Positions 1,254-64,000 of a stretch of 64,000 bases of DNA are shown here, piece by piece. Position numbers and translations under genes: made by a program. The first letter of the stretch is position 1, and the number at the start of each line of letters is the position of its first letter. Source of the DNA: a virus; the IMG/VR virus record IMGVR_UViG_3300032046_000005, positions 51,633 to 115,632 of that record; one strand, given 5' to 3'. The notes below the pieces were generated by a model. The model was given only the letters and a program-made list of their open reading frames with translations, searched no databases and had not been told where the DNA came from.

Positions 1254-2225
1254 CTAAGTTAATGTCAAAGTGCCCGTCCGTTGTATGGCAGTGCTATATC
1301 GTTCAATCAAGCGTCCTGACCATATTAATAACCATTCGTAATATGCATTGTTGGTTCCACCACTATGTTCCATGTGAATCCTAAAAGGATATCCTTGAAC
1401 TAATTCTAAGGTTGGTACAATTCCTCTAGATCCTCTAGCTTCTCGTTGTTTTGGAGCAATCATTGCCATGCGGTATTTAACTCCTGAGTAATCAATGAAG
1501 TTAGGACTTGTTTCCCAATTTTGAATGTATTTCTTTTCGAGTATTCGTTGATGTTCAGTAATACCTACTGTTGAAAAGAAATGGTTTTCTAATTCAGCGT
1601 ATTTTTCTGTAGTTAAGTCTGAGAAAATTGGATATTTTGGCAAGTTATGTCCTGCAGTTAGCAAGGCATTTTTCATTGTAACAATTGTTGCTAAATAGTC
1701 CCCAGCAGTTTGCATGTCATCGTCTCCATCAATTCCTCCAGCAATCGTTGTTCCTCCATTGAATATTCCAGTGAACTCTCCTTTACCTTTGAAAGGATCC
1801 ATAGTTGATACTGGATTTTTCATTTCGTCTCCCCAAGCTAAAAATTGATCTACTTGGTTAACCATCACGGGAATAGTTCTCTTGACTGTTTCTTTTATCA
1901 AATCTCCATTAATCAATTGATTGTTTTTAAATTTATCAACATCTTGTAAGGAAATCTGAACTTTACAAGCCAAGTAAAGTAATCCAATTGTGGTCTCGCC
2001 GAAACGAGGTACGATTATGTTAGCATCGTGTATTGAACTTGACATCTGTGCTCCATCTGGTTTCTTCCAATCAAAGTATGTGAGTTTATCTATACCTTCT
2101 CCTATGTTTCTTACTAATCCATTCGTATTAAAAAAGTTCCATAATGTCGGTTGTACAAGAACGAATTCCCATACATACTTTTCTATCGTTTTGGATAGTA
2201 ATTCATTAAACATTTCGCCTACCAT
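1254..2225 (-). CDS. major capsid protein (HK97 fold, DUF2184/linocin-M18-like)
   Basis: 323 aa; last gene of the protease-scaffold-decoration-MCP order; FLAWGD...FTGIFN motif. Confidence 0.8.
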   Translation of the reverse strand: MVGEMFNELLSKTIEKYVWEFVLVQPTLWNFFNTNGLVRNIGEGIDKLTYFDWKKPDGAQMSSSIHDANIIVPRFGETTIGLLYLACKVQISLQDVDKFKNNQLINGDLIKETVKRTIPVMVNQVDQFLAWGDEMKNPVSTMDPFKGKGEFTGIFNGGTTIAGGIDGDDDMQTAGDYLATIVTMKNALLTAGHNLPKYPIFSDLTTEKYAELENHFFSTVGITEHQRILEKKYIQNWETSPNFIDYSGVKYRMAMIAPKQREARGSRGIVPTLELVQGYPFRIHMEHSGGTNNAYYEWLLIWSGRLIERYSTAIQRTGTLTLT

Positions 2226-2229
2226 GTGT

Positions 2230-2721
2230 TTAGTTCTTCACCCATCTGGCATAAAAGTATTTTCGAGTAGCGCTTGCACCTGTTACGGCTTCTAAAGCAA
2301 TCATTTGAAAGTTATCGTTTGTATCTGCAACGGCAAACACTCCATCAACGCATTTGAGTTTATTCCCTTTCGCAATTGTAGTATTCGTTTCAGATAAAAC
2401 AAGAATATCTATTCCTTGTTTTGGAACTCCTACACGAATCCACGAATTATCAGCAAAGGGATGATCATAGTCTCTATAAAATATTCCAGTTGCATCAATT
2501 GTTTCTACTTGTGGCATATATTGTAATGCAAATCCAAAAATAGCTTCATTTTCTCCACATAAATCGATATCAGATTGTCCTGCTTCGCCATATTCTGTCA
2601 CAGCCATACCAATTGCTATATCAGAACCAGTACATTGTCTATCAACCACTCTTTCCCATTGTCCCTTATAAAGTAAAGTACTAATTGCTAAACCTATAAG
2701 AGTCGTTCCTAATGATACCAT
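2230..2721 (-). CDS. capsid decoration/cement protein
   Basis: 163 aa, Gly/Ala-rich beta-type sequence, located between scaffold and MCP. Confidence 0.6.
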   Translation of the reverse strand: MVSLGTTLIGLAISTLLYKGQWERVVDRQCTGSDIAIGMAVTEYGEAGQSDIDLCGENEAIFGFALQYMPQVETIDATGIFYRDYDHPFADNSWIRVGVPKQGIDILVLSETNTTIAKGNKLKCVDGVFAVADTNDNFQMIALEAVTGASATRKYFYARWVKN

Positions 2722-11103: not shown

Positions 11104-11807
11104 TATTTACTACTCCTCGCTGAAAAGTTTGTAAAATCAATCATGTTTGAACCTTTTTCAACAACTAAAAAATATTCGTAAAATCTAAAAGGTAATTTAT
11201 TTGTAAAATTTTTATTTGAAAAATCTCCTCGCTTTAAGAAATAATATTCTGACAACATTTTATGATTTTTTTCGTTTAATTGAGTTTGTAATTCAATTAC
11301 ATCAGTAAATGAATTAGGATGTCCTTTTTTTTTAGCTAATATTTCAGCATTACGAGCTAATTTATCATTTCCGAAATAATTTATATTTTTTCCGGTAATT
11401 AATAATTTCCCACCTATTTTCAAAACTCTTAACATTTCAGAAAGCGATTTTTCTTGTTCTAAAGCGTCAAATGTTGCCATGCATATTACACGATCAAAAA
11501 AATCACTATGAAATGGAAGTCTTTCTGCTTCAGTCTTTATTATTTCAACGGTATTATCATTTGAATGTTTTTTTGCTTCATTTATCATTTTTTCTGAAAT
11601 ATCGATTGCATATACTTTTACATCAAGTTTTGAATAATATTGAAACAATCTTCCAAAACCACATCCGACTTCCAAAACTTTACCTTGTATGTTTGTTTGG
11701 CTAATCATCCATTCAATAACATCATCATTAGGAACTTCTTTTATATTTTTTACTTTTTCTTTCCAATAATCGTAATAATTGTTCCAATATTCTTCTTTAC
11801 TATTCAT
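11103..11807 (-). CDS. class I SAM-dependent methyltransferase
   Basis: VLEVGCGFG, AIDISEKM, AERLPF..FFD, RVLKIGG. Confidence 0.9.
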   Translation of the reverse strand: MNSKEEYWNNYYDYWKEKVKNIKEVPNDDVIEWMISQTNIQGKVLEVGCGFGRLFQYYSKLDVKVYAIDISEKMINEAKKHSNDNTVEIIKTEAERLPFHSDFFDRVICMATFDALEQEKSLSEMLRVLKIGGKLLITGKNINYFGNDKLARNAEILAKKKGHPNSFTDVIELQTQLNEKNHKMLSEYYFLKRGDFSNKNFTNKLPFRFYEYFLVVEKGSNMIDFTNFSARSSK

Positions 11808-13985: not shown

Positions 13986-13986
13986 T

Positions 13987-17800: not shown

Positions 17801-17972
17801 TTTGAAATTCTGGATCATCAAATCCACTTGGATCTATGTTATCTGCTATATTTTCTAATTCTTTTTTATGATTATCATTATCAAGTTTAAACCTACTAAT
17901 ATGACGCAATATAGAACCTATTTCTTTCTTAGCTTTGTTTTTTAAAATCTTTCTTTCTTCTAATGTTGCCAT
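14877..17972 (-). CDS. fusion of GT-B (CgeB/GT4-like) glycosyltransferase, sulfotransferase-like domain and GT2 glycosyltransferase
   Basis: IPLAIDTEIYHP and KIYETMACKT (CgeB-type); TTERCGLSW; DVICPVY...FVFVHSDV...RNED (GT2). Confidence 0.7.
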   Translation of the reverse strand: MATLEERKILKNKAKKEIGSILRHISRFKLDNDNHKKELENIADNIDPSGFDDPEFQKINWTNEVIEQNLLYCMGIFIKYNLDNNLRDRLKWLISNTYTSIPKIKEDLKVFEKKIEIKHITEEKQKIEEKSKSTLEEIKQKKEEIKQKEIKQKIEKISKVIVLNKILIIGPSIAESCHFSEGIKIAFEKLGKEVKYISPHDLYDEYFDRHWMQQKHYPLSIILQKYSFYPDLILIDECNFLWKNDVSIPVFYHHREYKRPPEVDYPDVIFLWHGVVMNYFEKIFAPFWMYNVPYHEIIPLAIDTEIYHPEEKKYDRITGIGFRETIEYIEKANEITMVPIAHILYNEWEEFKKLGFRCFDTPISNIEYREILPKCEALFVNIATQQYLSHKIYETMACKTLCIIKLENETHKQILENAGFIAGKHYIAIKALNEIKEVYDQTQNKQEIVENAYKKILKDNTYIENAKYITKLFFKLTPNILKNRTIEYKNDPGDLNILISTTERCGLSWFCRYVSLIYEKMYKKRKVWNTRISRLEVAHPDYPSPKGWNAVNYVPIKDIVKKPHDRIILLQRKFESWKESMLFYYYNEYKPNLDYKTDKDNPEYKVWFDRIAEYYNQTYDEIDSPKVLRIYIEDLNNYTVATFTEIFNFLDFPKEGRPIIIPVNTPERVWEAFSADFNAGDLINERLQKLHSKYSNTKLEFKTNKKTITPAIDYITTEETEGYETTPMEKEMQKGETFTMNPFLTTIDTLKILDKEKFDVICPVYWINTDFFVDNVKSWIKEIPVKRIIFGINRSIKDFDFEEVIKYKIRPIIPPNIEIQVIDQRKYKTLGMCLVELMKLVQNWFVFVHSDVRLTKGSFRVMQKHAKPDIGIIESERIFFDGKTYKRGKTHYTKRSYSGFQLIQKESIKDLIDEIEDDFIYRNEDLIFQSRCKQNGFKYKKVWAWHVHQILETKQTFNEKDTMFMQWHGLVKYTQPDEITKEVCWAPIEVCLTKWGQVLSQILAFTWQHNPNWGELIIEKWNQYKIGKVRK

Positions 17973-18545
17973 TTAGTCAAAATTCCTAATTTTTTCTCTC
18001 ATTCCTATTTTTTTGCAAGGAGAACCGACGTAAATCGTCCAAGGTTCTAAGTCTTTTAACGCCAATGAATTAGAACCGAGTATTGCTCCATCTCCAACCG
18101 TGATACAAGGATGAACGATTGAATTAGTTCCTATGACTACATCTTTACCAATATACATTCTTCCTCTTTTTATATTTTGTTGATTATTTGGAACAGATGC
18201 AGTCATGTGAAAGCCTCCTTGATGCAAGTTTGAACCTGTAACCAAACGAGAACCAGCGGCTAATGCGCTATAATCTCCCATTTCTAATTCCCCTCCTCCT
18301 ACTATGCTTACAAACGATGCAATATGAACATATTTTCCAATCTTGATTCCCATTCCTCCGTAAAGAAATGTAAAATCGTCAATCATGGAATAATCTCCGA
18401 TTTCTATGACTTCTGGATTTACAAACTTAGCCTGTGGAAAAATTTTTACATTCTTTCCAAAACTTTTGAAATCATTTGACATTAATTTACGATATCCGTT
18501 TTCTAATTTTATTTTTGTTAGGCAATCGATTATTTCATTTGGCAT
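17973..18545 (-). CDS. hexapeptide-repeat (left-handed beta-helix) sugar acyltransferase
   Basis: IEIGDYSMID, IKIGKYVHIA, YIGKDVVIG, TVGDGAILG...YVGSP. Confidence 0.9.
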   Translation of the reverse strand: MPNEIIDCLTKIKLENGYRKLMSNDFKSFGKNVKIFPQAKFVNPEVIEIGDYSMIDDFTFLYGGMGIKIGKYVHIASFVSIVGGGELEMGDYSALAAGSRLVTGSNLHQGGFHMTASVPNNQQNIKRGRMYIGKDVVIGTNSIVHPCITVGDGAILGSNSLALKDLEPWTIYVGSPCKKIGMREKIRNFD

Positions 18546-19348
18546 TTTTTCTCTCCTTTCATATCTCTTAATATTTTACTTTCTGATTTAGTTCTTATTG
18601 TTATATCATATTTTATGAGATTTTGTCTAATAGTTCCATAATTACAATTGTTTTCTTTAGCTATTTCTAATATACCTTTTTGTAATTTATTTAATTGCTT
18701 ATTTTTCATACATTTTTCTGAAGTCCAATATTCTATAATTAAATATATTCTACTAAAAAAACATCTAATTCTATGATTTGTTATTTCTTTAGAAATTTTT
18801 TTTCCTTTTTCCCATTGATGATAACATTTTAATGAACAAAAATGATGACAACTATTTTTATTATATTTACAACCTTTTTTTATTACTTCTTTTCCACAAT
18901 GATCACAATTATATTTATGTTCAATTCCTCCATCTTTCCAATTTGGATTATCTTTACCATTATATTTTCCTTTTCTCATTTCACTTATTTTTTTCTTTGT
19001 TTCAAATGTATGTTTTCCATTATTTCCTCCACATTTAAGATTATAACCATAAGAATGATCTAATGTATTATATTTTTGAATGTAAAAATCTTCTTTTCTA
19101 TTTAATTCATTTTGGCTAATTGCAGAATCAATAATTTTAAATTCAAAATTATTAATTTCATATTTTTTTAAACTATTACATAAATATGAATTAAAATTAT
19201 AATTGCGTAATAATTCATTTAATTTACAAGAACGACTTCTAAAACCTCGTTTATTTACTGTTTGACCAATATATCTTTTATTATTTATTTTGTTTCTAAT
19301 TTGATAAATATATCCATAAGGATTTAAAAAATCTTCTAATGTTATCAT
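18530..19348 (-). CDS. GIY-YIG homing endonuclease with NUMOD3 and HTH-like tail
   Basis: GYIYQIRNKINNKRYIGQT, E..YI...GYN, HTFETKKKISE; start set at the ATG overlapping the upstream TGA. Confidence 0.85.
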   Translation of the reverse strand: MITLEDFLNPYGYIYQIRNKINNKRYIGQTVNKRGFRSRSCKLNELLRNYNFNSYLCNSLKKYEINNFEFKIIDSAISQNELNRKEDFYIQKYNTLDHSYGYNLKCGGNNGKHTFETKKKISEMRKGKYNGKDNPNWKDGGIEHKYNCDHCGKEVIKKGCKYNKNSCHHFCSLKCYHQWEKGKKISKEITNHRIRCFFSRIYLIIEYWTSEKCMKNKQLNKLQKGILEIAKENNCNYGTIRQNLIKYDITIRTKSESKILRDMKGEKKCQMK

Positions 19349-20379
19349 TCGGCTTTCATTTTTAATTTCCAATATCCATCACCATTCTTTTCTAATATTT
19401 TACGATTTGCAAATTTATCTATTGTTTTTAGAAACAATTCTTTTGAAATATTCAAACCACTACAAAAATCTTCTTCCATCACTAGATCTTTCTGCCAGTC
19501 ATATTTATTAACTCTTTTGACGGCTTCTTTTCTACTCATTTCACCGTGTCTTACCATATTACTACAATGTTCTGTTGTGGCTCCAAATCCAAATTTGATG
19601 AATTTGCAAAATTCATTAATAAGATATCCGACAGTATCCACTTGGCAATATTCAAATCCTTGATATCCTTCACGATCCCATTCGTTTGTATCGTTTAATC
19701 CTTTGAAACCGTATTGTTTTGCAAATTCATATCTCTTTATTAGACTCTTCCAAGGAACATAATAACTTGTAAATATTACATCAAGATCTTTAAATTCATT
19801 AGAATCTTTAAGTAATATTTTAGCATTTGGAGTTTCTTTTTCATTCTTATTTCCAATAGTTATATTTGTGTTTTCTCCCCAAATAACTAATTTAATACCC
19901 ATTTTCTGTGCTATTTCTAATGGTTTTTTATAAAGAATTTCATCCCAATATTTTTCTGGATGTAAATAATTTAAAAAATCTTCTCTTGTTCTTTTTATAA
20001 TTTCTTTTCTATTTGGAGTAAAAGTAATGATATCAATTCCAAAACGTTCGCTTAAATTATCAAAATTTTTTCTTCCAGTATTGGTCCAACTAAAATTATC
20101 AATCATTATTCCTAATGGATTCATTAAAAGTTTTTCTTTAAATAAATAAACCAAATAATGAGAATCTTTTCCTGAACTAATACAAATAATGCAATCATAA
20201 TTTCCATCATTTCGTTTATATTTTTTACATAATTCTTCAAGTTCTTTCCATCTTTCATTCCAATCTATTTTTTTACTTTCTTCAAATTGAACACACGAAT
20301 TACATATTCCTTCTTTTGTAAACGAAAGATTCAATCTTTGATTAGTCATCACACATCTTTTACAACGCAAAAATTTCAT
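19345..20379 (-). CDS. N-acetyl sugar amidotransferase (WbuX/PseA-like, PP-loop)
   Basis: CKRCVM..R..C..C, YDCIICISSGKDS, IWGEN, KFGFG, VRHGEMSR. Confidence 0.85.
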   Translation of the reverse strand: MKFLRCKRCVMTNQRLNLSFTKEGICNSCVQFEESKKIDWNERWKELEELCKKYKRNDGNYDCIICISSGKDSHYLVYLFKEKLLMNPLGIMIDNFSWTNTGRKNFDNLSERFGIDIITFTPNRKEIIKRTREDFLNYLHPEKYWDEILYKKPLEIAQKMGIKLVIWGENTNITIGNKNEKETPNAKILLKDSNEFKDLDVIFTSYYVPWKSLIKRYEFAKQYGFKGLNDTNEWDREGYQGFEYCQVDTVGYLINEFCKFIKFGFGATTEHCSNMVRHGEMSRKEAVKRVNKYDWQKDLVMEEDFCSGLNISKELFLKTIDKFANRKILEKNGDGYWKLKMKAE

Positions 20380-20859
20380 TTAAATCAACTTCTTTATAGT
20401 ATATTGATTGTTGCATATTCCTAAATCCCAATCTTTTTTTGTGTGACAAGAATGACATAACCATTCATAATCTTCAATATTTCGTGTATAATTTCCTTTT
20501 GAATGATCAAAACTTAATTCTATTTTTCTTTCTTTTCTACATTTCATGCAATATATTGGTTTGGAATAATTGGTATTTAACCATATATGAATTGCTTTTT
20601 GTCCAGCATTATTTCCTTTCCATAAATAATGTTTTTCTCTTCCTAAAAACCCTTTTAATCCTTTATTCCAAGGTATTTTTCCTTTTAAATATTTTATTTT
20701 TTGAGATTCAGAAAGATTTCTTATTTTTATGTTAAAGCGTACTAACCAATTAAAAACAGTTGTAGGACTATTTACATTACATAAATGTGCTATTTCTACA
20801 GTTGAATTTTTTTTAATTATATACTGATCATATAACCAATTTTTATCTTTATAACTCAA
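20380..20859 (-). CDS. HNH-like endonuclease-related protein (HTH + NUMOD + Zn-HNH-like)
   Basis: YKDKNWLYDQY..EIA, IPWNKG, WKGNNAG..IHIWL..CMKC..YTRNIEDYEWLCHSCH. Confidence 0.65.
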   Translation of the reverse strand: MSYKDKNWLYDQYIIKKNSTVEIAHLCNVNSPTTVFNWLVRFNIKIRNLSESQKIKYLKGKIPWNKGLKGFLGREKHYLWKGNNAGQKAIHIWLNTNYSKPIYCMKCRKERKIELSFDHSKGNYTRNIEDYEWLCHSCHTKKDWDLGICNNQYTIKKLI

Positions 20860-21722
20860 TCTATTTCACTCCACTTTTCATATTCATTAGGAATTATCCA
20901 ATATTTAGGATTCACATCATTAGAAATCAAGATTTCATAATCAGAAATAAGTTTTTCGTGTAATTTTTCTCCTAATCGATTACCAATTATTTCGATAGGA
21001 TAATCTTTTCCCACTATTTCTTGAATAACATCTATTAGTTTTTGTTCTCTAAGTTTCGGAACCCATATTTCTCCATTTTTACCTTCTATAAATGCTTTCG
21101 TGATGAAATCAATCATTTCTTTAGGATACATGAAAAACCGTTCCATATCTATATTTGTAAGTAATATGGGTTCTTTTTTTTCTTTTTTTTCTTTAGCAAT
21201 TTGAACTATTGAACCTCTAGAACCATATATATTTCCTAGTCTCACACAAACCATTTGAATCAGAGGATCTTGACTCCATCTTACCTGTAGCAATCTTTCA
21301 CTTATTTTTTTTGAACATCCCATTAAGGATGAAGGTTCAATTGCCTTATCTGTACTAATATGTAATAATTTCTTGATTTTATGTTCAATAGAAGCAGTAA
21401 TAATGTTATCAAGTCCCATAATATTTACAGAAACTGCTTCCATAGGATTATATTCACAAAAGGGAACATGTTTGATTGCGGCACAATTTATTGCATAATT
21501 TACTCCTTTCAATGCTCTACGAACTCTTTCTAAGTTTCTTACATCACCCAACAAACACCGAATTCTGTTATTATTCCATTTTTGTTGACATTCCCATAAA
21601 GAATTTTCATCATTACTGAATACTCGTATTGAATATGGTTTTTGTTTTAATAGATATTCAACAATGAGAGAACCAATAGATCCTGTTCCTCCAAATACAC
21701 ATGTTGTCTTATCTTTAAACAT
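20856..21722 (-). CDS. UDP-GlcNAc 4,6-dehydratase family (PseB/CapD/FnlA-like SDR)
   Basis: GGTGSIG, GDVR, AAIKHVPFCEYNP, STDKA, SK, RLGNIYGSRGS, R.GEKLHE. Confidence 0.9.
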   Translation of the reverse strand: MFKDKTTCVFGGTGSIGSLIVEYLLKQKPYSIRVFSNDENSLWECQQKWNNNRIRCLLGDVRNLERVRRALKGVNYAINCAAIKHVPFCEYNPMEAVSVNIMGLDNIITASIEHKIKKLLHISTDKAIEPSSLMGCSKKISERLLQVRWSQDPLIQMVCVRLGNIYGSRGSIVQIAKEKKEKKEPILLTNIDMERFFMYPKEMIDFITKAFIEGKNGEIWVPKLREQKLIDVIQEIVGKDYPIEIIGNRLGEKLHEKLISDYEILISNDVNPKYWIIPNEYEKWSEID

Positions 21723-22175: not shown

Positions 22176-22637
22176 TTAAGTGTAAAAATCTAAACAAGGA
22201 TTTTTTATATCTATTTCTCGTTCATTATTAGGAGGTTTTACAATTTTTTCATATTCTTCAATTTCTTCTTCGGAAATATCTGAATCTTTGTTGTTTATTC
22301 CTTTTGCTAGGAGTTTGAGAAATAGTTCACACCAACTTTCAATTCCTTCCATAAATTTATACATGCCCATTTCATACATCTTTAACTTTTTTAGCACATA
22401 TAAACTAGTTACTCTAAAATTTTGCATACAATGAGCACGATCATCATTAGTACAAGTACTACAATCTAGATTACATTCAAAACAATCTTTAATTTCATTG
22501 TTTATGGCATCAAAGAAATCGAATTCTTGTTCAAAATCATTTTTTACTTTTGTCAATTCATCCATTTTTGCTATTATTTTATCAGTCAATTCTTGTTTCT
22601 TTTCATTACTTAAACGATTCCATTTTTTTCTTCCCAT
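22176..22637 (-). CDS. hypothetical protein with Cys cluster
   Basis: CFECNLDCSTC..C; coupled to neighbours. Confidence 0.5.
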   Translation of the reverse strand: MGRKKWNRLSNEKKQELTDKIIAKMDELTKVKNDFEQEFDFFDAINNEIKDCFECNLDCSTCTNDDRAHCMQNFRVTSLYVLKKLKMYEMGMYKFMEGIESWCELFLKLLAKGINNKDSDISEEEIEEYEKIVKPPNNEREIDIKNPCLDFYT

Positions 22638-22885
22638 CGTTGTTTACTCTCCTTTTCGTTAATAATCAAATGTTCGATATCAAAATTAAGTTGTCCTATA
22701 AGATTCCAGATTTCTATCATCGAACCAACAATATCATATAAAATTGGTTTGAGTTCTATCATTGAAAGTTTGGGAGTTTCTTCAAGAAATTTCAGATTAG
22801 TCTCTAAAGCATTCTTTACTTCTTCTATGAGATCTTTCCTTTTTTCAATTTTTTCTGAATATTCTTCAATTTTTTTTTCCAACAT
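22610..22885 (-). CDS. hypothetical coiled-coil protein
   Basis: ORF track; overlaps neighbours in operon style. Confidence 0.5.
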   Translation of the reverse strand: MLEKKIEEYSEKIEKRKDLIEEVKNALETNLKFLEETPKLSMIELKPILYDIVGSMIEIWNLIGQLNFDIEHLIINEKESKQRWEEKNGIV

Positions 22886-23234
22886 TTTTCATGATCTCCT
22901 TATTAATTTTCCAAAACCGATTGCTGTATTTACTAATGTATTTATTTGTTTCAAATTCACGAAAACAATGGTTTAATTGCTTTCCTAAGCGTTTTTGAAA
23001 AGGACTATATTCAGATTCAGTAAATAAATATCTTTCAGGAACATTGAATATATCAACAATGATTTTATCTCTCAATTGTCGCAATGAAAAATATTTGTTA
23101 AAGTGATCTGAAAGCAAAATTCTTGTTGCTAATACTTTCACATCGTCTAAATTTAAGTTTGATTTATTTATTTTTTCGCTATTATACAATGAAATTTTTA
23201 TACATCTCTTCATATGATTTTTTTTCTTTATCAT
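22866..23234 (-). CDS. hypothetical protein, possibly winged-helix
   Basis: Helical pattern ending in a YISKYSNRFWKI beta hairpin. Confidence 0.45.
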   Translation of the reverse strand: MIKKKNHMKRCIKISLYNSEKINKSNLNLDDVKVLATRILLSDHFNKYFSLRQLRDKIIVDIFNVPERYLFTESEYSPFQKRLGKQLNHCFREFETNKYISKYSNRFWKINKEIMKNVGKKN

Positions 23235-23478
23235 TCACATAATATGGAACATGTGTTGTTTCATTTGATTGTTCAAAAGTAATGACCATCAACCAACCGT
23301 TTTTATAATTCTTGAATTCGACTTCCTTTATTTTATTTTCAATATAAGGAAAAAAACATTCAAAAAAATATGGTTCTGGAAATGTTCCTATGATTGTAAA
23401 TCCATGATGCCACATTATTGACAACCAATTTTTCAAATTTTCCATATTTTTTTTCATATTTTTTCTGATAATTATCAT
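23182..23478 (-). CDS. hypothetical protein (weak similarity to part of TerL)
   Basis: ORF track; see findings. Confidence 0.45.
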   Translation of the reverse strand: MIIIRKNMKKNMENLKNWLSIMWHHGFTIIGTFPEPYFFECFFPYIENKIKEVEFKNYKNGWLMVITFEQSNETTHVPYYVNDKEKKSYEEMYKNFIV

Positions 23479-23507
23479 AGAATTATGATAGTTTTATAGT
23501 TCATTGT

Positions 23508-25445
23508 TTATTTTTTGACTTTTTTATCAAAATCTTTTCGTTGATACATATAACTTGGACTATTTTCTATTTGTTTTTGTAATCGTTCGCTTCGTTCTCG
23601 TAATCTATCCATCGTTTCGTTCCATTCGTCCATTCTTTCTTTAAAAAAGTTTTTGTTATGCATCATGATTTCCATAAATCGTTGATTTTCTAACGATTCT
23701 TGTATCCAATCAATGTTATCAAAATCTTGTATTCCTTTCACTGGTTTATTTCTAACAGCTTTTTCTGGTTTGCCCGTTCTCACGGTTTTTGTTCGTTCAG
23801 GAGTGATTTTTTGATCTTCATTTACTTTTTTTTCTACTTTTTCTCCTTTTCCTTGTCCTTGTTCATTACCTTGTCCTTGTGGTGGCAATAACAACTGTGG
23901 ATTTTTCTTGAATTGTTCGAATTGCATCATAGCTTGCTCGTATTGCATGCCCATTAATTTCTTTTGAATTTTGACCATTTTTGTTTGAACTTTTGCTTGT
24001 TCTAGTTGTTCTCGCATTAATTGTTCAGTTAATCGTTGCTGTTCGGTTTTATGCAAGTCCAAGTTCCAACGCAATGTCACATTACCTAAGTCTGGAAAAT
24101 GACACATGTTCTGCAAAATATCCATTATGTCATCCGTTATGTCCATTTGTAATGTAGACAGGTTTGAAGCCAAGTAATCTTCTTTTGAAACTAACGCACC
24201 TGCGCCTTCAAGACCCCCACCTTCCGCTCTTCCAAATAATTGGTTCTTAGGTATGATCCAAGCACTCGAAATGTCTTCTCTCAAGAATTCGAGATATGAA
24301 TCAATACCTTCTCCAATCTTGCCTGCCGCATTCATGAGTTTAAAATCCATGTTCTTTCCAAATATATAGAACTTGTTTGCTCTCATTTTAGCAAATAAAT
24401 CGAGATATTTCTGAGTCAATTCAGCAGAAGGATATTCTTGAGCTACAGTTGCTCCCACTAATACTGTTCCAAGTTGAGATAATGATCGTAATATGTAATA
24501 ACAAGTATTTAGATAACAGATTAACGGAATCCAACACAATTCCGGTATTGCAATACCTCTCAAACCTCCTTCTACTTTTCTTGTTTCTAAAACATGAACT
24601 CTTGAATGATGTATGGTCGTTTGAGTAGGCACTCCACCAATATAATCCCATTTCGATTTGTCATAATCTAATCTTGCGTTATCAAAAATGTTCATTGGAG
24701 TCATATAATAACAACTAAACGCATCAAAATCAATTGGTCTGGTTCTAGGAGCAGATTTATCCATTCTCTCTACTCCTTTTTCTCCTCTATAATATCCAAT
24801 CAAATGTCCTAATCCGGTCATTCGTTCGAAATAAACCGTATCAGTTATGTGATCCCATAAATGTGTCTGATTCATCCATTTCAAAATAGTCATTATTTCA
24901 GGAGTTTTGATTTCTTTATCAGGATCATCATAATTCACGAAAGAAAAACGATTTCTAAACGCATCCTTCGCTACTGAATAACAACCTCTATGTGCAACTC
25001 CCAATCGTTGAGTACACATTACCACGAGATGAGAAACGGGAATTCTTCCATAGTCGTAAACATAATCTCCTCCTCCTGGAGTTCCGTAAAAATCGTCAAG
25101 AGGAGTATAATAAGATTGAAAGTCTGATGTAATGCTTTCAAATTTTTCTTTAATTCCATCTCCTAACGGAATCCGGTAATCTTTTCCATAACCTTGAGGA
25201 ATTCCTAAAAACTTGTAAAAATCTTTAGTTAATCCCCATTCGTCCGTTTTTTCGTTTTCTTGTTTAAGTTTGCTTTTAATAAGTGCTTCGTCTAAAACTT
25301 CAATGTAGTCTCGTGGTTTCTTGATTTCATCTGAAAAACCGTATTCTTTCGCAACTTTATCGTGTCGCTTTTTTACATCAGAAGAAGTGAATCCGCCTAG
25401 TTTAGATTGAAATCCTTTCGAACCTTTTTTACTTATACCTGTCAT
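23508..25445 (-). CDS. portal protein (DUF1073-like)
   Basis: ERMTGLG, IHHSRV, G...PE, SAWIIPKNQLFG..GG, C-terminal coiled coil; lies downstream of the terminase on the same strand. Confidence 0.75.
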   Translation of the reverse strand: MTGISKKGSKGFQSKLGGFTSSDVKKRHDKVAKEYGFSDEIKKPRDYIEVLDEALIKSKLKQENEKTDEWGLTKDFYKFLGIPQGYGKDYRIPLGDGIKEKFESITSDFQSYYTPLDDFYGTPGGGDYVYDYGRIPVSHLVVMCTQRLGVAHRGCYSVAKDAFRNRFSFVNYDDPDKEIKTPEIMTILKWMNQTHLWDHITDTVYFERMTGLGHLIGYYRGEKGVERMDKSAPRTRPIDFDAFSCYYMTPMNIFDNARLDYDKSKWDYIGGVPTQTTIHHSRVHVLETRKVEGGLRGIAIPELCWIPLICYLNTCYYILRSLSQLGTVLVGATVAQEYPSAELTQKYLDLFAKMRANKFYIFGKNMDFKLMNAAGKIGEGIDSYLEFLREDISSAWIIPKNQLFGRAEGGGLEGAGALVSKEDYLASNLSTLQMDITDDIMDILQNMCHFPDLGNVTLRWNLDLHKTEQQRLTEQLMREQLEQAKVQTKMVKIQKKLMGMQYEQAMMQFEQFKKNPQLLLPPQGQGNEQGQGKGEKVEKKVNEDQKITPERTKTVRTGKPEKAVRNKPVKGIQDFDNIDWIQESLENQRFMEIMMHNKNFFKERMDEWNETMDRLRERSERLQKQIENSPSYMYQRKDFDKKVKK

Positions 25446-25748
25446 TTATGATACTTTTAATTGATAATTATTAAACAGATTATCCCACGATTTGGTGTCT
25501 TTAAAATTTGCTACTATTTTAGCACATAAATGAAATGGTTTTATCACTTCAGTTGAAAACGTATCATTAAATTCATAATCTAATATGACTCCATATTCAT
25601 CTTTGTTCAAATTTCTTTCTTCAATAGGTATGATTGATATTTTAAACGAATCTAAAATCTGTTTTTCTATTATCTTTTTCATGTGTTCTATAATAGCTTT
25701 AAAACTTGGACTTTCTTTTTCTAGTAATTTTTCATTTGCATTATTCAT
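25446..25748 (-). CDS. small protein, paralog of 39412..39732, with an MCP-like segment
   Basis: PSFKAII..IE..ILDSF.ISI.P...DY.FN...PFHLCAKI shared with 39412 ORF. Confidence 0.65.
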   Translation of the reverse strand: MNNANEKLLEKESPSFKAIIEHMKKIIEKQILDSFKISIIPIEERNLNKDEYGVILDYEFNDTFSTEVIKPFHLCAKIVANFKDTKSWDNLFNNYQLKVS

Positions 25749-38468: not shown

Positions 38469-38627
38469 ATGATAAATGAAATCATAATTGATTTAAAAGC
38501 GTTAAAAATCTCACTTGAACGCGTTCCTAAAAATGTTGCTCCAAGTGAAGATAAAGAACTATATTTAGGAAAAGCACTTGAAGATTTGAAAGTGCTGATT
38601 CTTAAATATATGAAATTAAAGGATTAA
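38469..38627 (+). CDS. small hypothetical protein (MINEIIIDLKALK...)
   Basis: Manual translation, 52 aa; AAACATTTAAATA promoter and GTGA RBS upstream. Confidence 0.5.
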   Translation: MINEIIIDLKALKISLERVPKNVAPSEDKELYLGKALEDLKVLILKYMKLKD

Positions 38628-39322
38628 TTTTTAACAAACAAAATCGCATTGGGATAATGAATCATCAATCTTCCAGACCACACGAAAAGAAAATCAACCG
38701 TTTTTTGAAGGTTATGCGTGATTGGTTCAAATACAAACGAATAACCTTCATACAATTCAAATGTTTTGAATTTATGTTCATCCTTACCAATTGAAGTTGA
38801 AATCAAACAATATCCTTTTTCATGTTTATAATTTTCGAAATTAGGACTTGTAAAAACTGTTTTTATGTCTTCTGAAAGTTGTGGTATAAGAATATCAGGA
38901 CTTACAAGCAAAACAAAAGGTAAATCATATCCATCGCCTTTCATTGTTTCTATTGATTCATTCAAATCAATTCTATAAAATCCGCCGTTAAATAAGCCAT
39001 AGAATTCTCTACATTTCCATTCTCTCATTTTTTCAATCGTTTCTACTGGATCTAACATATCATCTCCCCAAGCAATGAATTGTTCGATTTGATCTTGCAT
39101 TACCTTAACTACTTTCTTAAATTGTTCTTCATACAATTTATTATAATTATCCTTATATTCGTCAATCTTTTCAAATGAAATTTCAACTTTAGTAGCAAGA
39201 TATAACATTGGAACAGTTGATTCACATCCAACATCTATCAATCCAGAATCTTTTTTCCAATCAAAATATGTTAACTTATCAATTCCTTCTCCAAGTTGTT
39301 TAATCAATCCATTCTTTCTCAA
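38624..39322 (-). CDS. divergent, internally deleted paralog of the major capsid protein
   Basis: GEGIDKLTYFDWKK identical to MCP; LYLA.KV.IS, Q..QF.AWGD.M..PV.T, G.FNGG, TSPNF, EL..GY.F, WSGRL...Y..AI; frame stays open upstream to 39415. Confidence 0.85.
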   Translation of the reverse strand: MRKNGLIKQLGEGIDKLTYFDWKKDSGLIDVGCESTVPMLYLATKVEISFEKIDEYKDNYNKLYEEQFKKVVKVMQDQIEQFIAWGDDMLDPVETIEKMREWKCREFYGLFNGGFYRIDLNESIETMKGDGYDLPFVLLVSPDILIPQLSEDIKTVFTSPNFENYKHEKGYCLISTSIGKDEHKFKTFELYEGYSFVFEPITHNLQKTVDFLFVWSGRLMIHYPNAILFVKN

Positions 39323-39411
39323 GAAGCTGTAAAGATTGTCTTGATTTTCTATTTGTTCTTTCGTTCTTTCTTGTATTTTTTTTGATATTTCTTGTATTTT
39401 TTCTTCCGTTT

Positions 39412-39732
39412 TTAATCATCTTCTAAAGTATATTTTTCAAACAATTCGTCCCATTTATCTACATCTTTCGCATTAACTTGTATTTTGCTACAAACATGAA
39501 ATGGTAATGGTAATGTTTCTGGATATTTTTCTCTAATTTCTAGATCAAATATTTTATTGTTAAAATAATAATCAATAAGATATTCACGCGTGTCTTCTTT
39601 TTCTTGTTCTTCGTTTCTCATTGGTTCAATAGATACATCAAAAGAATCTAAAATTCTATGTTCAATGTTTCTTTTCACATCTTTAATGATTGCTTTCATG
39701 CTTGGTCTATTTAACAAATTTTCATTTGTCAT
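39412..39732 (-). CDS. small protein with MCP-like segment, paralog of 25446..25748
   Basis: ETLPLPFHVCSKIQVNAKDVDKW vs MCP ETTIGLLYLACKVQISLQDVDKF. Confidence 0.65.
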   Translation of the reverse strand: MTNENLLNRPSMKAIIKDVKRNIEHRILDSFDVSIEPMRNEEQEKEDTREYLIDYYFNNKIFDLEIREKYPETLPLPFHVCSKIQVNAKDVDKWDELFEKYTLEDD

Positions 39733-39808
39733 GATATATAGATTTTATGCTATATTTATATACTTCATTATCAAAACGTTTAAATTATAACAAGTATAAT
39801 TATATCAT
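39733..39808. promoter_or_regulatory. back-to-back archaeal TATA promoters
   Basis: TATAAATA (minus, 39753-39760) and AAAACGTTTAAATTA (plus, 39773-39787), each about 21-22 nt from a start codon. Confidence 0.6.
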
Positions 39809-40102
39809 ATGAACATAAATCTTAATTCAACAGAAAGAATAAGTATTGAAAAACCAGATCTAAAAGGTTGGTCTCATTGTTCTTGTAACGATCCAACCTG
39901 CAATCGAATGTTCTTTCAAAAATCTACATTACTTCATGTTTTGAAACCATATTTAGAAAAATGGAAGGATTTGCCTTTAGATTTGGATCTTATGTCTTTT
40001 CATAATATTAATACTGGATTCATGACACTTGTTTTAACAATTTCTCAAACAGGAGATATTCAAGAAAGTGAATTGAAAAAAGCAATTGAAACCAAACGAT
40101 GA
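39809..40102 (+). CDS. hypothetical protein
   Basis: ORF track; HCSCNDPTC; ATGA coupling to the next gene. Confidence 0.55.
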   Translation: MNINLNSTERISIEKPDLKGWSHCSCNDPTCNRMFFQKSTLLHVLKPYLEKWKDLPLDLDLMSFHNINTGFMTLVLTISQTGDIQESELKKAIETKR

Positions 40103-40833
40103 TTGATCAACTTTATACCGAACAAGAAATCAAGAAATACGAGAAGTATTGTTTCAAATGTAAAAAGACTTTGTATTATCATGAAGCTTTTGTTGAATTC
40201 ATTAATAAAAAAATGAAAGAAGATGGATTTCGAGATAAAATGCCTTCTGAACTCAAACTACTTTTCAGAGATCAATTTAATGTTTGGTGGTTAAGCGATA
40301 AAATACAATTTTATTGTTGCAATTGTTATAATCAAGACAATAATCCTGCTCATTTACCATATTTCTTTAATCCTGATACGCGTGAATTTAATGCCGGAAG
40401 GAATGAATATAATAATGTTTCAATGACAGGAGATCTTTTAGCAACAGTCTTTTCTGCCATGCATATATTTGAAGAATATTATTATCTTGATTTACATCAT
40501 CGTTGTCGTCTTGATATTGAAATGAATTCTTATACATTGATACAATTTCAAATAGAAAATCATTATGATACAATACTTGGATTGACAGAATTAGAACGAG
40601 TATCTGAAATGCCTTTTATCAGAAAAATAAACACAAACAACGATTTGCGAGAAAACAGAATTATATTCAAAACTAGCAATCTTCCAACTCCTCTTGTAAT
40701 TAATGATTATAATCAATGGATAGAATATGATTTATATCATAACAATCCTATTGGACATCATGATGATTATTATAGATATAGAGATCTTACAAAAAGAGAA
40801 ATAGAAATTCACACGGGAATTTTGACTTTTTAA
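40099..40833 (+). CDS. Zn finger fused to an MCP-derived segment
   Basis: CFKC...W...FYCCNCY N-terminus; GDLLAT and ENH..G.TE..R..E...I....T match the MCP. Confidence 0.7.
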   Translation: MIDQLYTEQEIKKYEKYCFKCKKTLYYHEAFVEFINKKMKEDGFRDKMPSELKLLFRDQFNVWWLSDKIQFYCCNCYNQDNNPAHLPYFFNPDTREFNAGRNEYNNVSMTGDLLATVFSAMHIFEEYYYLDLHHRCRLDIEMNSYTLIQFQIENHYDTILGLTELERVSEMPFIRKINTNNDLRENRIIFKTSNLPTPLVINDYNQWIEYDLYHNNPIGHHDDYYRYRDLTKREIEIHTGILTF

Positions 40834-40843
40834 TGTTAAAAAA

Positions 40844-41962
40844 TTAAGTAATAAAATATTTTTTTAGAATATTATAGATTTTCGTAATTGTTTTCTTATA
40901 ATTTCCATACTTATTAGAAAAGAAATGCATGGTTGTTCGCTTGTCTACATTAATATCAAGATTGTTTTCCTTGTAAACTTTTACGATTTCGCGTTCAAAC
41001 GCTTTTTCTTGGTTTATCAAGATGATTTGTAGTTCAATATATTGTTTGTAAAGCAAAATTTCGCTTTCAGAATACTCCTCTTCCAAGTAAGGTAAAATTG
41101 ATTCGTAATCTAACACATAAAGATCTTCCGTAGCATTCAAAAGCGTGTTTCTTATTGCAATCTTAGCCATTCGCATCGAACCACATAATGAGTGATGATA
41201 TGATTCAATTGTTGGAGGTTTGAGCTTGTAAAGTTGAGTATAATGTTCTAAGTGACAATACCAAACCGCTCCTTCGCTCCCCTTGAACATGTTCTGGTCT
41301 CCAATTCGTTCAAGTTTTGTTTCTAAGTTGTTTTGCTCGCTTTTGTAATTATCAATCAAGTTCAAATTATTATCATATGTCTTGAATAGTACTGGAATTG
41401 AAACTGAACCGTGTTTTAAGCATGATGGTGATATGATCAATCCATTTTCTTTCAAACCAAACAACAAACATATCTCAATGTCTTTATCATAAACAATCGT
41501 GATTGGATTCAAATATCCATATAGTTCATAACTCAAATTACAACAATTTTCAAAAGGTAAAGTTGAAATATCAGGATGTTTTGATAGTGTTTTATATAAC
41601 AACACTTGAAAATCTTCTCTTGGAAACATCGTTAATCTAGTTTTATACGATACAAAAGACTTGAAATTTTGATCTTTATAAACAAACTGCAAAATATTGG
41701 TCCCATCTAGTTTTTCCCAACTAGTTATTAAATCAATATCAGGAGGAAAATGAAAGTTTCCTTCAAAATCGTTGGGATAATTCATCTTAGGTGTCGTGGC
41801 AATTTCTTGATTACAAAACTCACCATTAATATTTGTTATTATCAATTTTGAATAATCACCTCTATGAATGTATCCATTTAATACGTTTTGCTTGTTATAT
41901 GGATCTTGTTCGTCTTTAAACTCAATCAGATTCTTTTTTTCGATTCTCATTTTCTTTTTCAC
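40844..41962 (-). CDS. ATP-dependent RNA ligase-like nucleotidyltransferase
   Basis: Motif I WEKLDGTN, YELYG, LFG, EGAV, YKLK. Confidence 0.75.
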   Translation of the reverse strand: MKKKMRIEKKNLIEFKDEQDPYNKQNVLNGYIHRGDYSKLIITNINGEFCNQEIATTPKMNYPNDFEGNFHFPPDIDLITSWEKLDGTNILQFVYKDQNFKSFVSYKTRLTMFPREDFQVLLYKTLSKHPDISTLPFENCCNLSYELYGYLNPITIVYDKDIEICLLFGLKENGLIISPSCLKHGSVSIPVLFKTYDNNLNLIDNYKSEQNNLETKLERIGDQNMFKGSEGAVWYCHLEHYTQLYKLKPPTIESYHHSLCGSMRMAKIAIRNTLLNATEDLYVLDYESILPYLEEEYSESEILLYKQYIELQIILINQEKAFEREIVKVYKENNLDINVDKRTTMHFFSNKYGNYKKTITKIYNILKKYFIT

Positions 41963-50657: not shown

Positions 50658-50954
50658 ATGAAGATAAATTTTGATGTTAGTAAATTAACTGCAACAACTG
50701 AAGAACTAGACGAATTTTTCAAACATCCGTTCAAACAAACAAAAATATATAACTACACGTCTGGTTTAGAAATTACTGTTTTGATAAACAACCTGAAAAA
50801 ACCAAAACACCTTTTCCTATATGACGCGTCTCTTTCCGAAAGTAAATACGATAAAAAAATGTCAGTGTTCGCTTTCTGGACCAAGCGAAGAAAAATCTTC
50901 TGGATCGCAAACATCCGAAACAAGAGATATAAAGAAGAAAATTATTTACTTTAA
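50658..50954 (+). CDS. hypothetical protein
   Basis: Leaderless behind a TATA box; T-run after the stop. Confidence 0.55.
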   Translation: MKINFDVSKLTATTEELDEFFKHPFKQTKIYNYTSGLEITVLINNLKKPKHLFLYDASLSESKYDKKMSVFAFWTKRRKIFWIANIRNKRYKEENYLL

Positions 50955-51024
50955 TGTTTTTTTTTCCTTTTTTTTTTCTAATTTTCCAAAACATTTAATT
51001 ATAATTATTCATTCATTATTTTAT

Positions 51025-52107
51025 ATGAAAAAACCATTTCAACAATTATCTTTAATAGATTTTATTAATACTCAAAAAAACCAAATAAAAAAAAAAGACC
51101 CATATCCTAATTTTTTTTTTAAAAAGAATTTAAAAGAATCTACTTTACGAAACATAAAACATATTTTTGTTAGATCATATAAAATTAAACCAGAAGAATG
51201 TGAATGTTGTCACGAAAAGAAAAAACTTGTACTTTCTTTCTTATACCATCCTCAACCTTATACTTTTAACATTGAAGATTATCGTTATTTATGCGTATCT
51301 TGTCATATGAAATATGATTTAAAAATTGGGCAAAGGAAAAGATATTCACATATAACTTCTTTAGAAACAAGAAAAAAAATATCTGAAAAAAACAAAGGAA
51401 GAATAAGTCCTATGAAAGGAAAACACCATTCTTTAGAAACTTTAGAAAAAATGAGGCAATCTTGCAAAGGAAAATCTTCAGGAATGAAAGGAAAACATCA
51501 TTCTTTAGAAGCAAAGAAAAAAATATCTGAAAAATTAAAGAAAAAAAAGAAAAAAATAATAATAGAAAAACCAATTTTAGAATCTTCAATTGATTATATT
51601 CGAAAATATATAAAAAAATATAAAATAAAAAGTAATATATGCGAAATTTGTCATAAAAATAAAAAACTTATTCTTTCATTAATTGATTATGATAAAGGTT
51701 ATACATATAATGTAAATGATTATAGATATATATGTTATTCTTGTAATTCTAAATATCTTATTAGCCAAAATCGGATTCAAATTCCTATTCATAATATTCC
51801 CCATTCTGAAGAAACTAAGAAAAAGTTGTCAATAATTAATACATCAAATCCTACAAAATCTATGTTAGGAAAACATCATTCTTTAGAAACTAAAAAGAAA
51901 ATGTCAATGTCACATAATGGAAAAAACAAACCAAATTTTGAAAATGATCCAATTAAAAAAGAAGTTGAAATGTTTTTGCATTTTAATAATGAATTAAAAA
52001 TTAATCAGTGTCCTTATTGTAAAATACATTATGAAACACGAAATAAGAATAAAATTTTCTGTTCTCAAAAATGTATGCAATTATATCACAGAAAAAAATT
52101 TTTGTGA
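51025..52107 (+). CDS. NUMOD3-repeat / duplicated HNH-like endonuclease-related protein
   Basis: Two CExCH..KKL.LS...YT.N..DYRY.C.SC domains and several KGKHHSLETKKK repeats; start set at MKKPF. Confidence 0.7.
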   Translation: MKKPFQQLSLIDFINTQKNQIKKKDPYPNFFFKKNLKESTLRNIKHIFVRSYKIKPEECECCHEKKKLVLSFLYHPQPYTFNIEDYRYLCVSCHMKYDLKIGQRKRYSHITSLETRKKISEKNKGRISPMKGKHHSLETLEKMRQSCKGKSSGMKGKHHSLEAKKKISEKLKKKKKKIIIEKPILESSIDYIRKYIKKYKIKSNICEICHKNKKLILSLIDYDKGYTYNVNDYRYICYSCNSKYLISQNRIQIPIHNIPHSEETKKKLSIINTSNPTKSMLGKHHSLETKKKMSMSHNGKNKPNFENDPIKKEVEMFLHFNNELKINQCPYCKIHYETRNKNKIFCSQKCMQLYHRKKFL

Positions 52108-63684: not shown

Positions 63685-63918
63685 ATGGGTGGAAAACAGC
63701 AAAAACCGACCGATTTAAAACACTTGCACGCGCTTGTTCCGAGAAGCAAAAAAGAACAAAAGGAATTTGAGAGGTTCAAGGACAAATTGAACGAGAGCAT
63801 GAAAGTTGTTTGTGACGATTGCAAGCATTATTTGGCGAGTTTGAATTTTTGCAAGGCGTGGAAAATGCCTCGCGATGTGTTAACGGTTGATAATTGCAAG
63901 AGGTTCAAGAAAAAATGA
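63685..63918 (+). CDS. small Cys-rich protein
   Basis: CDDCKHY...C...C..F. Confidence 0.5.
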   Translation: MGGKQQKPTDLKHLHALVPRSKKEQKEFERFKDKLNESMKVVCDDCKHYLASLNFCKAWKMPRDVLTVDNCKRFKKK

Positions 63919-64000
63919 GTAAAGAAAAAAATGAAGATGAATTTGGAAAAATGTTGAAAGGAGCAATTTCTTGTGGCATGCAAGGAAATAGAATGCATGT

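Follow-up and report, generated by a model that had tools for sequence, protein, structure and literature searches.

The locus that we analyzed lies in a window of 64,000 nucleotides (bases 51633 to 115632 in a virus record of 115,632 bp), which has a background of 26% GC and comes from a large, tailed, probably archaeal virus. Two pairs of genes diverge from an AT-rich spacer of 76 nt (39733..39808, read directly from the DNA). On the minus strand, ORF (iii) (39412..39732, 106 aa) comes first and is followed by ORF (i) (38624..39322, 232 aa when counted from its called start, a TTG). On the plus strand, an ORF of 97 aa (39809..40102) is followed by ORF (ii) (40099..40833, 244 aa), and the stop codon of the one overlaps the start codon of the other (ATGA). 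Within this 26% GC DNA, the spacer has TATA-like elements whose centres lie some 25 nt upstream of each ATG, and putative promoters there are plausible by position. The locus sits among small accessory ORFs, about 36 kb from the gene for the major capsid protein (MCP), and an earlier note on this DNA was right to place it outside the head operon. That note described ORFs (i), (ii), and (iii) as three relatives of the MCP and did not mention the 97-aa ORF, which is the fourth gene of the locus. Neither the 97-aa ORF nor any other protein or family from the locus has a match in Pfam or PHROGs. The surrounding region is rich in small zinc-finger ORFs. Repeats that flank the locus are AT-rich chance matches only.

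The MCP (1254..2225, minus strand, 323 aa) is the parent of the derived genes. Its AF2 model has a pLDDT of 80 and a pTM of 0.77, and its best Foldseek matches in PDB, to encapsulins and MCPs of phages, have E = 1e-13 to 1e-10 (probability 1.00, TM 0.54-0.69). By its modelled structure, the protein is an HK97-fold MCP with an N-arm, an E-loop, a spine helix and P-domain, and an A-domain. It has about 50 homologs, each of roughly 325 aa. The gene lies in a head module of conserved order, with the portal gene upstream (23508-25445, PF06381 match with E = 3e-10), and the order of scaffold-like, decoration-like, and MCP genes is also present on a contig from a relative (L010). The decoration-like head protein (2230..2721, minus strand, 163 aa) has a weak match to a PHROG of head decoration (E = 0.04). 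A copy of this protein that is 50% identical (E = 5e-53) lies behind a zinc ribbon in another ORF of the genome (22538-24013, outside the window); this fusion was not mentioned in the earlier note. Homing endonuclease genes adjoin the MCP gene and are also found within the head module, and the genome has many internal pairs of paralogs.

We searched for relatives in several collections. A metagenome-assembled genome (MAG) of an archaeon encodes an MCP that is 78% identical to this one. No additional match was found in 100 relatives of that archaeon or in 400 other genomes from the same phylum. Scans of a viral contig set found no relative, tblastn against GenBank phages with the MCP or with P0053 (a zinc-finger paralog of ORF (ii), see below) gave no match, and neither did a search of PDB sequences with profiles of the MCP and of the A-domain.

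ORF (i) is a trimmed paralog of the MCP. It is 32% identical to the MCP by BLASTP (E = 1e-34), including a block of 14 identical residues, and it matches the MCP-family HMM with E = 2e-29 (or 4e-36 once an N-arm extension, discussed below, is added). The similarity is significant along the length of the MCP, and these results agree with the earlier description of ORF (i) as a near full-length paralog that lacks much of the segment between FNGG and TSPNF. When aligned onto the MCP model, ORF (i) does not have the complete set of HK97 domains. It has lost 38 of the 85 A-domain residues from FNGG to TSPNF, 12 residues at the tip of the E-loop, and the C-terminal strand; the deleted parts include the GG-acidic loop, the TE.QRILE helix, and the TGTLTLT end. 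It retains the N-arm, the strands of the E-loop, the spine helix, and the P-domain, which are the elements that contact other subunits. By element, its identity to the MCP is 62% for the E-loop, 46% for the spine helix, and 26% for the A-domain.

ORF (i) is a recent, lineage-specific, and very fast-evolving duplicate of the MCP. In a phylogenetic tree, it groups inside the clade to which the virus's own MCP belongs, its branch measures 1.79, and its composition is altered. The block of 14 identical residues is in a strand of the E-loop and is specific to the closest subclade of MCPs. Between ORF (i) and the MCP, this block has six synonymous differences, which indicate constraint on the protein; we rejected gene conversion as the source of the block. 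As far as sequence can tell, the exact match points to ORF (i) acting on the virus's own capsid, not on a competitor's.

The frame of ORF (i) is open for 262 codons, while the longest open frame in 2000 shuffles was 152 codons. Upstream of the called start, the frame continues through an extension that encodes the N-arm (39323..39409, minus strand). The extension starts with ACG (39409-39407), two bases past the stop codon of ORF (iii), and contains no ATG, GTG, or TTG. In two 99%-identical copies, P0052 and P0092, there is an ATG where this genome has ACG, and once the extension is included, their match to the MCP HMM spans positions 8 to 157 (96 bits). The ancestral ATG start of ORF (i) reads ACG in this genome. 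(Across an A5 run, another upstream ATG, 39419-39417, is offset by a single base from the frame of ORF (i).) The only orthologs of ORF (i) that we found, by a word-indexed search of limited sensitivity, are from 99%-identical strains, and there are none on the short related contigs. Given the lost ATG and the lack of orthologs beyond those strains in this search, ORF (i) is unlikely to be an essential capsid subunit, and it may be decaying.

The claim that ORF (iii) carries another segment of the MCP had to be dropped. The MCP HMM gives E = 0.6 and hhalign gives a probability of 6%. Instead, ORF (iii) is 42% identical (E = 9e-22) to an ORF of 100 aa (25446..25748, minus strand) that abuts the start of the portal gene. 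On these comparisons, ORF (iii) is not MCP-related and is a paralog of this small gene upstream of the portal. A search of the ESM Atlas with the paralog gave nothing usable.

The proposal that ORF (ii) is a segment of the MCP fused to a zinc finger was borne out. Residues 10-85 (40126-40353) are the zinc finger, with the pattern CxxC...CCxC, and residues from about 90 to 244 (40366-40830) are a diverged A-domain from the MCP that ends in TGILTF. ORF (ii) matches positions 154-235 of the MCP-family HMM with E = 8e-5 among 424 ORFs, and pairwise BLASTP against the MCP gives E = 2e-4. A transitive chain makes this link solid: ORF (ii) has two collinear BLASTP matches to P0068, one in the zinc finger (E = 1e-7) and one in the C-terminal domain (E = 3e-7), and the C-terminal domain of P0068 matches the MCP HMM with E = 1e-14. 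In the structural model of ORF (ii), the zinc domain has pLDDT above 90, and the C-terminal half is below 50. For the zinc domain, Foldseek and VIA-align found nothing above chance (Z below 5). An HMM for typical members of the family described below, built without the zinc finger, does not match the C-terminal half of ORF (ii) (E = 0.59), while P0068 (E = 1.5e-15) and the MCP (E = 6.6e-15) do match. ORF (ii) is a diverged, MCP-like subtype that lacks the family's insertion of roughly 25 aa. Its frame is open for 244 codons, again versus a maximum of 152 codons in shuffles of 26% GC DNA. The genome has two zinc-finger paralogs of ORF (ii) elsewhere, outside the window, which the earlier note did not mention; the finger of ORF (ii) is 36% identical to that of the paralog P0053 (E = 1e-10).

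ORF (ii) is a member of a hitherto unannotated family of proteins from other metagenomic viruses that contain just the A-domain of the MCP, either stand-alone or fused to other domains. When the A-domain family is compared with the MCP family using hhalign, the probability is 98.8 (E = 6.6e-17, MCP residues 161-256). The members contain the equivalent of MCP residues 160-257 or so, followed by the C-terminal TGxLTLT strand, and the C-terminal motif I-x-TG-x-LT-L/I is common to MCPs and A-domain proteins. ORF (ii) has in common with clear members of the family the TGxLT(L/I)-type end and the N-terminal CxxC...CCxC finger. The zinc domain is kept across about 30 proteins. There are also stand-alone A-domain proteins without the finger (P0055, P0056, and P0083), and in P0060, P0066, and P0067, segments of the MCP precede the finger, so the modules occur in either order. 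Members on distinct contigs are 36-48% identical to the stand-alone protein P0055 and their N-terminal fusions vary; the conservation of the family across distinct contigs implies selection. The most conserved shared element is an acidic loop and helix, GG.D.DDDM..AGDY, which is of a surface type. The family has also expanded in copy number, diverged rapidly, and shuffled its domains. On both of the other contigs that we recovered (2/2, both short), the A-domain gene adjoins a sulfotransferase-like gene or a radical SAM/SPASM gene, and homologs of these genes lie inside this virus's head module. A third candidate link, which paired a zinc-finger paralog with a glycan-cluster paralog, was rejected, as the genes are GIY-YIG/NUMOD3 homing endonucleases. 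The A-domain family corresponds to no family in Pfam or PHROGs and has no match in GenBank phages, and P0055 gave nothing usable in the ESM Atlas. In targeted literature searches, we found no description of a conserved family with only the axial domain of an HK97 capsid protein, whether alone or fused to a zinc finger.

Overall, we are confident that the locus contains two separate offshoots of the HK97-fold MCP, ORFs (i) and (ii), and that ORF (iii) is unrelated. The earlier note viewed ORFs (i) and (ii) as roughly complementary pieces. This is correct at the level of motifs, as the loop, helix, and end motifs named above as lost from ORF (i) are hallmarks of the A-domain-only family. But both proteins still have the A-domain's helix-strand-helix core. 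They are therefore not the halves of a single fold, and we rejected a strict split-gene reading. We also found no coupling that would make them one system, and their ages differ: ORF (i) is recent and was found in 99%-identical strains alone, while the A-domain family is older and widespread.

What might these genes do? We tentatively prefer that ORFs (i) and (ii) are accessory factors, not core components, that use native HK97 interfaces to act on the capsid of the virus itself. We give this somewhat less than an even chance. As a subunit of capsomers, minor or alternative, ORF (i) would co-assemble or compete with the MCP, in the manner of T4 gp24 and the satellite protein Ccm, which occupy pentamer positions. 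Free A-domain modules would dock on the A-domains of the MCP, at or near the centres of capsomers, where they could serve as caps, decorations, or marks on the capsid, perhaps in concert with the sulfotransferase and radical-SAM modification genes. The homology of both genes to the MCP, the shared C-terminal motif, the fact that the contact elements are the best-kept parts of ORF (i), its 14-residue block and its place within the clade of the MCP, the long open frames, the conservation of the A-domain family, the context of A-domain genes on the two short contigs, and the precedent from SaPIbov5 (PMC8569155) argue for this reading. Against it are the location among small accessory ORFs, the lack of orthologs of ORF (i) outside 99%-identical strains in our search, and the loss of its ATG. 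Also, expansion, divergence, and shuffling are typical of conflict genes as well, and the C-terminal half of ORF (ii) is poorly modelled (pLDDT below 50) and is not matched by the typical-family HMM (E = 0.59).

Extra paralogs of the MCP are known in T4 and in satellites. In T4, the vertex protein gp24 and the major capsid protein gp23 are paralogs; gp24 is full-length, its gene adjoins gene 23, and it is conserved across T4-like phages. Like gp24, which co-assembles at special positions, ORF (i) is a second HK97-fold protein that arose by duplication of the virus's own MCP. Unlike gp24, its A-domain is trimmed, it lies 36 kb from the head genes, it is found in near-identical strains only, and it has no canonical start in this genome. 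As a decoration protein at the centre of capsomers, T4 Hoc offers by analogy a possible mode for free A-domain modules, in which an accessory protein docks at this site. Hoc is Ig-like and unrelated to the MCP, whereas the A-domain family derives from the MCP's own axial domain. Encapsulins, which ranked highest in the structural search with the parent MCP, are also HK97-fold proteins encoded outside a viral head module. They are complete cellular shell proteins with cargo operons, while the derivatives here are partial domains within a virus genome. Another MCP homolog encoded outside the head module is Ccm from SaPIbov5, a satellite protein that acts against the helper phage: it is 24% identical to the helper's capsid protein, has the full set of HK97 domains including a wedge-shaped A-domain, and fills pentamer positions, which alters the geometry of the capsid (PMC8569155). 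ORF (i), in contrast, is a gene of the virus itself, and 38 of the 85 A-domain residues are missing from it.

The leading idea of the earlier note was that these proteins are anti-defence decoys or sponges: the A-domain modules, and perhaps ORF (i), would block a putative host sensor of MCPs without triggering it. MCPs directly trigger several defence sensors, such as Avs7 and Dsr1 (bioRxiv 10.64898/2026.01.04.697583). The nearest precedent is DSAD1, a phage protein reported to block the host sensor DSR2 in competition with the structural protein that this sensor recognises (PMC11087589). The accessory location of the genes and the multi-copy, fast-evolving, and architecturally shuffled nature of the family fit this idea, as does the surface-type GG.D.DDDM..AGDY element, which is kept in the A-domain proteins and deleted in ORF (i). 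But one would expect a trigger-mimicking fragment to switch the sensor on rather than silence it, and we found no match in Pfam or PHROGs to a known anti-defence family. Furthermore, the idea gives the zinc finger no role, and the exact match between ORF (i) and the MCP is in an E-loop strand, which contacts other subunits. DSAD1 is not known to have arisen from the structural protein with which it competes. We consider decoys to be distinctly unlikely.

Two other explanations seem quite improbable to us. The first is that the proteins regulate expression by sensing assembly: the finger would bind nucleic acid and the A-domain would bind free MCP, which would couple late expression or translation to the pool of unassembled subunits. 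This would account for the well-folded zinc domain that is conserved in about 30 proteins, for its recurrence beside pieces of the MCP in either order, and perhaps for the many small zinc-finger ORFs near the locus. It does not account for the finger-less proteins or for ORF (i), which has no nucleic-acid-binding module, and we recognised no DNA- or RNA-binding fold in the finger, whose best structural matches have Z below 5. The second is that ORFs (i) and (ii) are functionless leftovers of duplication or recombination. The genome's internal paralogs, the homing endonuclease genes beside the MCP and within the head module, the long branch, altered composition, lost ATG, and narrow distribution of ORF (i), and the highly diverged C-terminal half of ORF (ii) could all reflect debris. 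However, the frames of 244 and 262 codons (versus a maximum of 152 in shuffles) have stayed open despite about 68% amino-acid divergence; the conservation of ORF (i) follows structural elements and includes a 14-residue block that is held at the protein level; and conservation of the A-domain family extends to several other viruses. Finally, it is very improbable that the proteins are dominant-negative subunits or capsomer caps that poison co-infecting relatives or satellites: although MCP homologs can redirect the capsid assembly of another element (as Ccm does, PMC8569155) and ORF (i) has the contact elements without the axial parts, its exact match to the virus's own MCP in the E-loop strand implies that the virus's own assembly would be poisoned at least equally, and there is no sign of a resistant MCP variant or of satellite context.

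Beyond our preferred reading of accessory factors for the virus's own capsid, a bolder possibility is that this virus lineage has cut the HK97 MCP into free-standing modules that act in trans as capsid mimics. These modules would be a self-folding A-domain, often tethered to a finger, and a shell subunit that is poor in A-domain; they would serve as sponges for host sensors of MCPs or as plugs or markers of capsomer centres. We think that this is unlikely, but with a real chance of being right. One genome provides a set that could be cloned for tests: the MCP, the scaffold, ORF (i), and three zinc-finger A-domain proteins. Should the modules bind capsomers, they would represent a new type of factor for assembly or decoration, and they would lend themselves naturally to the addressing of HK97 shells. 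Should host sensors be their targets instead, no decoys derived from a capsid would be known before them. And if the lineage does use capsid mimics, this would be the first virus known to deploy parts of its own capsid fold as effectors in their own right.

The major capsid protein (MCP) is encoded by ORF 1254-2225 (minus strand), which has no match in Pfam or PHROG. We found about 50 metagenomic homologs, nearly all of 310-353 amino acids. An AF2 model of the MCP, built with the homolog alignment (pLDDT 80), hit encapsulins and phage capsid proteins in Foldseek (E = 1e-13 to 1e-10). The genes are ordered scaffold-like, decoration-like, MCP, and the order is the same on a related contig (L010). 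Given the model, the structural matches, and the conserved gene order, the identification as the MCP is justified. The portal gene is at 23508-25445 (PF06381). Two large head-module proteins (5326-7749, 807 amino acids; 7715-9307, 530 amino acids) have a common repeated N-terminal segment of ~60-80 amino acids (38% identity). There are also free-standing homing-endonuclease-like genes (window 444-1229, 18530-19372, and 50821-52107; genome 13604-14887), of HNH-like, GIY-YIG SegE-like, and NUMOD3 types. One of these directly follows the MCP gene, and another sits within the sugar-modification cluster.

ORF (i) (38624-39322, minus strand) is a paralog of the MCP, as the earlier note had proposed from a block of 14 identical residues (BLASTP E = 1e-34, 32% identity across 285 columns; E = 2e-29 against the profile of the MCP family, or MCP-HMM). 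In a maximum-likelihood tree, (i) lies inside the 24-row clade of the virus's own MCP, away from distant members, and its terminal branch is 1.79, versus a median of 0.16. (i) is a lineage-specific duplicate that has diverged very fast. The only further copies that we found are 99% identical. Its open frame of 262 codons compares to a maximum of 152 in 2000 shuffles.

We placed the deletions in (i) on the MCP model, and (i) does lack part of the MCP's A-domain segment, as the note had also claimed. The missing parts are 12 residues at the tip of the E-loop; MCP positions 160-175, which take in the GG-acidic loop and the first part of helix 176-190; positions 211-231, comprising a loop and helix 224-230; and the C-terminal strand QRTGTLTLT. 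The E-loop strands of (i) are 62% identical to those of the MCP and the spine helix is 46% identical, but the A-domain only 26%. The 14-residue block is the first E-loop strand, and elsewhere it is found only in the closest MCP subclade. Its DNA has six synonymous differences between (i) and the MCP, so it is protein-level selection, and not recent gene conversion, that keeps the block identical.

The frame of (i) runs 29 codons further upstream of the called TTG start. This extension encodes an N-arm, and with it P0052 and P0092 (99%-identical copies of (i) from other assemblies) match positions 8-157 of the MCP-HMM. In those two copies, the extension opens with ATG, the ancestral start of (i). 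In this genome the codon is ACG (39409-39407), two bases past the stop of (iii). It is preceded by an ATG (39419-39417) that is shifted by one base relative to the frame of (i), with an A5 run in between. Upstream of the ancestral start codon the copies are not alike in sequence, which makes the junction of (iii) and (i) variable among near-identical strains.

ORF (ii) (40099-40833, plus strand) encodes a zinc finger and then a diverged MCP A-domain. An all-against-all BLAST of the whole genome found two paralogs outside the window: P0053 (289 amino acids; genome 25479-26348, L004:15480-16349) and P0054 (340 amino acids; genome 11604-12626, L004:1605-2627). All three share the CxxC...CCxC N-terminal domain (the finger). 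P0053 is a textbook member of what we call the A-domain-only family (MCP-HMM E = 2e-11, positions 160-255), and it ends in GIVTGWLTLT, the counterpart of QRTGTLTLT in the MCP family. P0054 retains the finger, but its domain is incomplete.

Searched against 1.84 billion representatives, a profile built from the three paralogs had 40 matches, which form three groups. The first consists of stand-alone proteins about 150 amino acids long (P0055, P0056, P0083); in the second, the domain is preceded by other N-terminal parts (P0061, P0064, P0070, P0073); and the third has finger-plus-domain proteins (P0058, P0068), alongside numerous proteins that match in the finger only. Apart from the truncated P0054, all proteins with the domain have a TGxLT-type motif at or near the C-terminal end, in most cases as I-x-TG-x-LT-L/I. 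Profile-profile comparison of this family to the MCP family gave a probability of 98.8 (E = 6.6e-17, MCP 161-256), and a finger-free profile of typical members also matched the MCP (E = 6.6e-15). These matches and the shared C-terminal ending indicate that the family is the excised A-domain of this MCP lineage, without the P-domain, E-loop, and N-arm but with the C-terminal strand. In some proteins, pieces of MCP precede the finger (positions 120-210 in P0060, 168-199 in P0067, and 113-142 in P0066), so the pairing of finger and MCP part recurs, with varied layout.

Compared directly with the MCP-HMM, (ii) has only a modest match (15.7 bits; E = 8e-5 in a search of 424 ORFs). The finger-free profile misses it (E = 0.59), and AF2 was confident for its zinc domain only. 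The link that the note had drawn from (ii) to the MCP is firm because of P0068, which matches (ii) collinearly (finger, E = 1e-7; C-domain, E = 3e-7) and matches the MCP at E = 1e-14. (ii) is a diverged member of the family. A roughly 25-residue insertion in typical members is absent from (ii), P0068, and the MCP. Convergent with (ii) is a 372-amino-acid ORF (40844-41962) with no Pfam match, whose EKLDGTN motif resembles the KxDG site found in nucleotidyl-transferase ligases.

(i) and (ii) had been described as roughly complementary. This is correct for motifs, as those conserved by the A-domain family are exactly those deleted in (i). They are not two halves of one fold, because the A-domain's helix-strand-helix core is present in each. 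The two lineages differ in age and spread. All that connects them is their position on either side of an AT-rich spacer of 76 nt, where TATA-like elements lie some 25 nt ahead of each flanking ATG.

ORF (iii) (39412-39732, minus strand), which had been thought to derive from the MCP, has no significant similarity to it (MCP-HMM E = 0.6, hhalign probability 6%). Instead, it is a paralog of the 100-amino-acid gene that abuts the portal start (42% identity). Elsewhere, genome ORF 22538-24013 (L004:12539-14014; 491 amino acids) joins an N-terminal zinc ribbon to a copy of the decoration-like protein (50% identical to window 2230-2721). It is the second instance of an outer head protein copied and joined to a zinc-binding module. 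Thus, several genes of the head module also exist in this virus as accessory copies, and these are often preceded by a zinc-binding module.

The window covers bases 51633-115632 of the virus record. The record (115,632 bp, GC about 27%) looks like a complete genome, not a fragment, because genome 1-187 and 115446-115632 (window 63814-64000) are identical except for one base. This is probably a terminal repeat or a circular overlap. The record's label (linear, 71% complete) is at odds with the matching ends. ARAGORN found no tRNA in the window (64,000 nt). An MCP 78% identical to the window's is on a 2.9-kb contig binned in an "uncultured archaeon" MAG, and the UniRef name of one family member gives its origin as marine sediment metagenome. 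The host is likely archaeal, with weak support.

We examined the context of A-domain genes on two other contigs. On L008, the gene before the A-domain gene is homologous to the sulfotransferase-like genes in this virus's head module (35% identity, E = 4e-16). On L009, a sulfotransferase (PF00685), a radical SAM/SPASM gene with homology to window ORF 13080-13985 (E = 6e-27), and an FkbM methyltransferase come directly after the A-domain gene. This virus has sulfotransferase-like and radical SAM/SPASM genes between its portal and head genes. These two contigs give a thin hint that A-domain modules belong with virion modification. The whole stretch of sugar/modification genes, at window 9382-21722, is placed between portal and head genes; it includes a 4,6-dehydratase (PF02719), the radical SAM/SPASM gene, and sulfotransferase-like paralogs.

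Our tentative preference is that (i) and the A-domain modules act on the capsid of the virus itself, through native HK97 interfaces. Alternatively, the capsid-derived modules might be decoys that bind host MCP sensors. Many MCP-sensing defence proteins are now known, and the A-domain family is expanded and shuffled, both of which make decoys more plausible; even so, we consider this unlikely. A role as regulators that respond to the state of assembly seems quite improbable, as does duplication debris, and interference with competitors is the least probable. If the proteins do act on the virus's own capsid, then (i) would be an optional subunit of the shell or an alternative one, in the manner of gp24 of T4 or Ccm of SaPIbov5 (PMC8569155), and the A-domain modules would serve as docking units.
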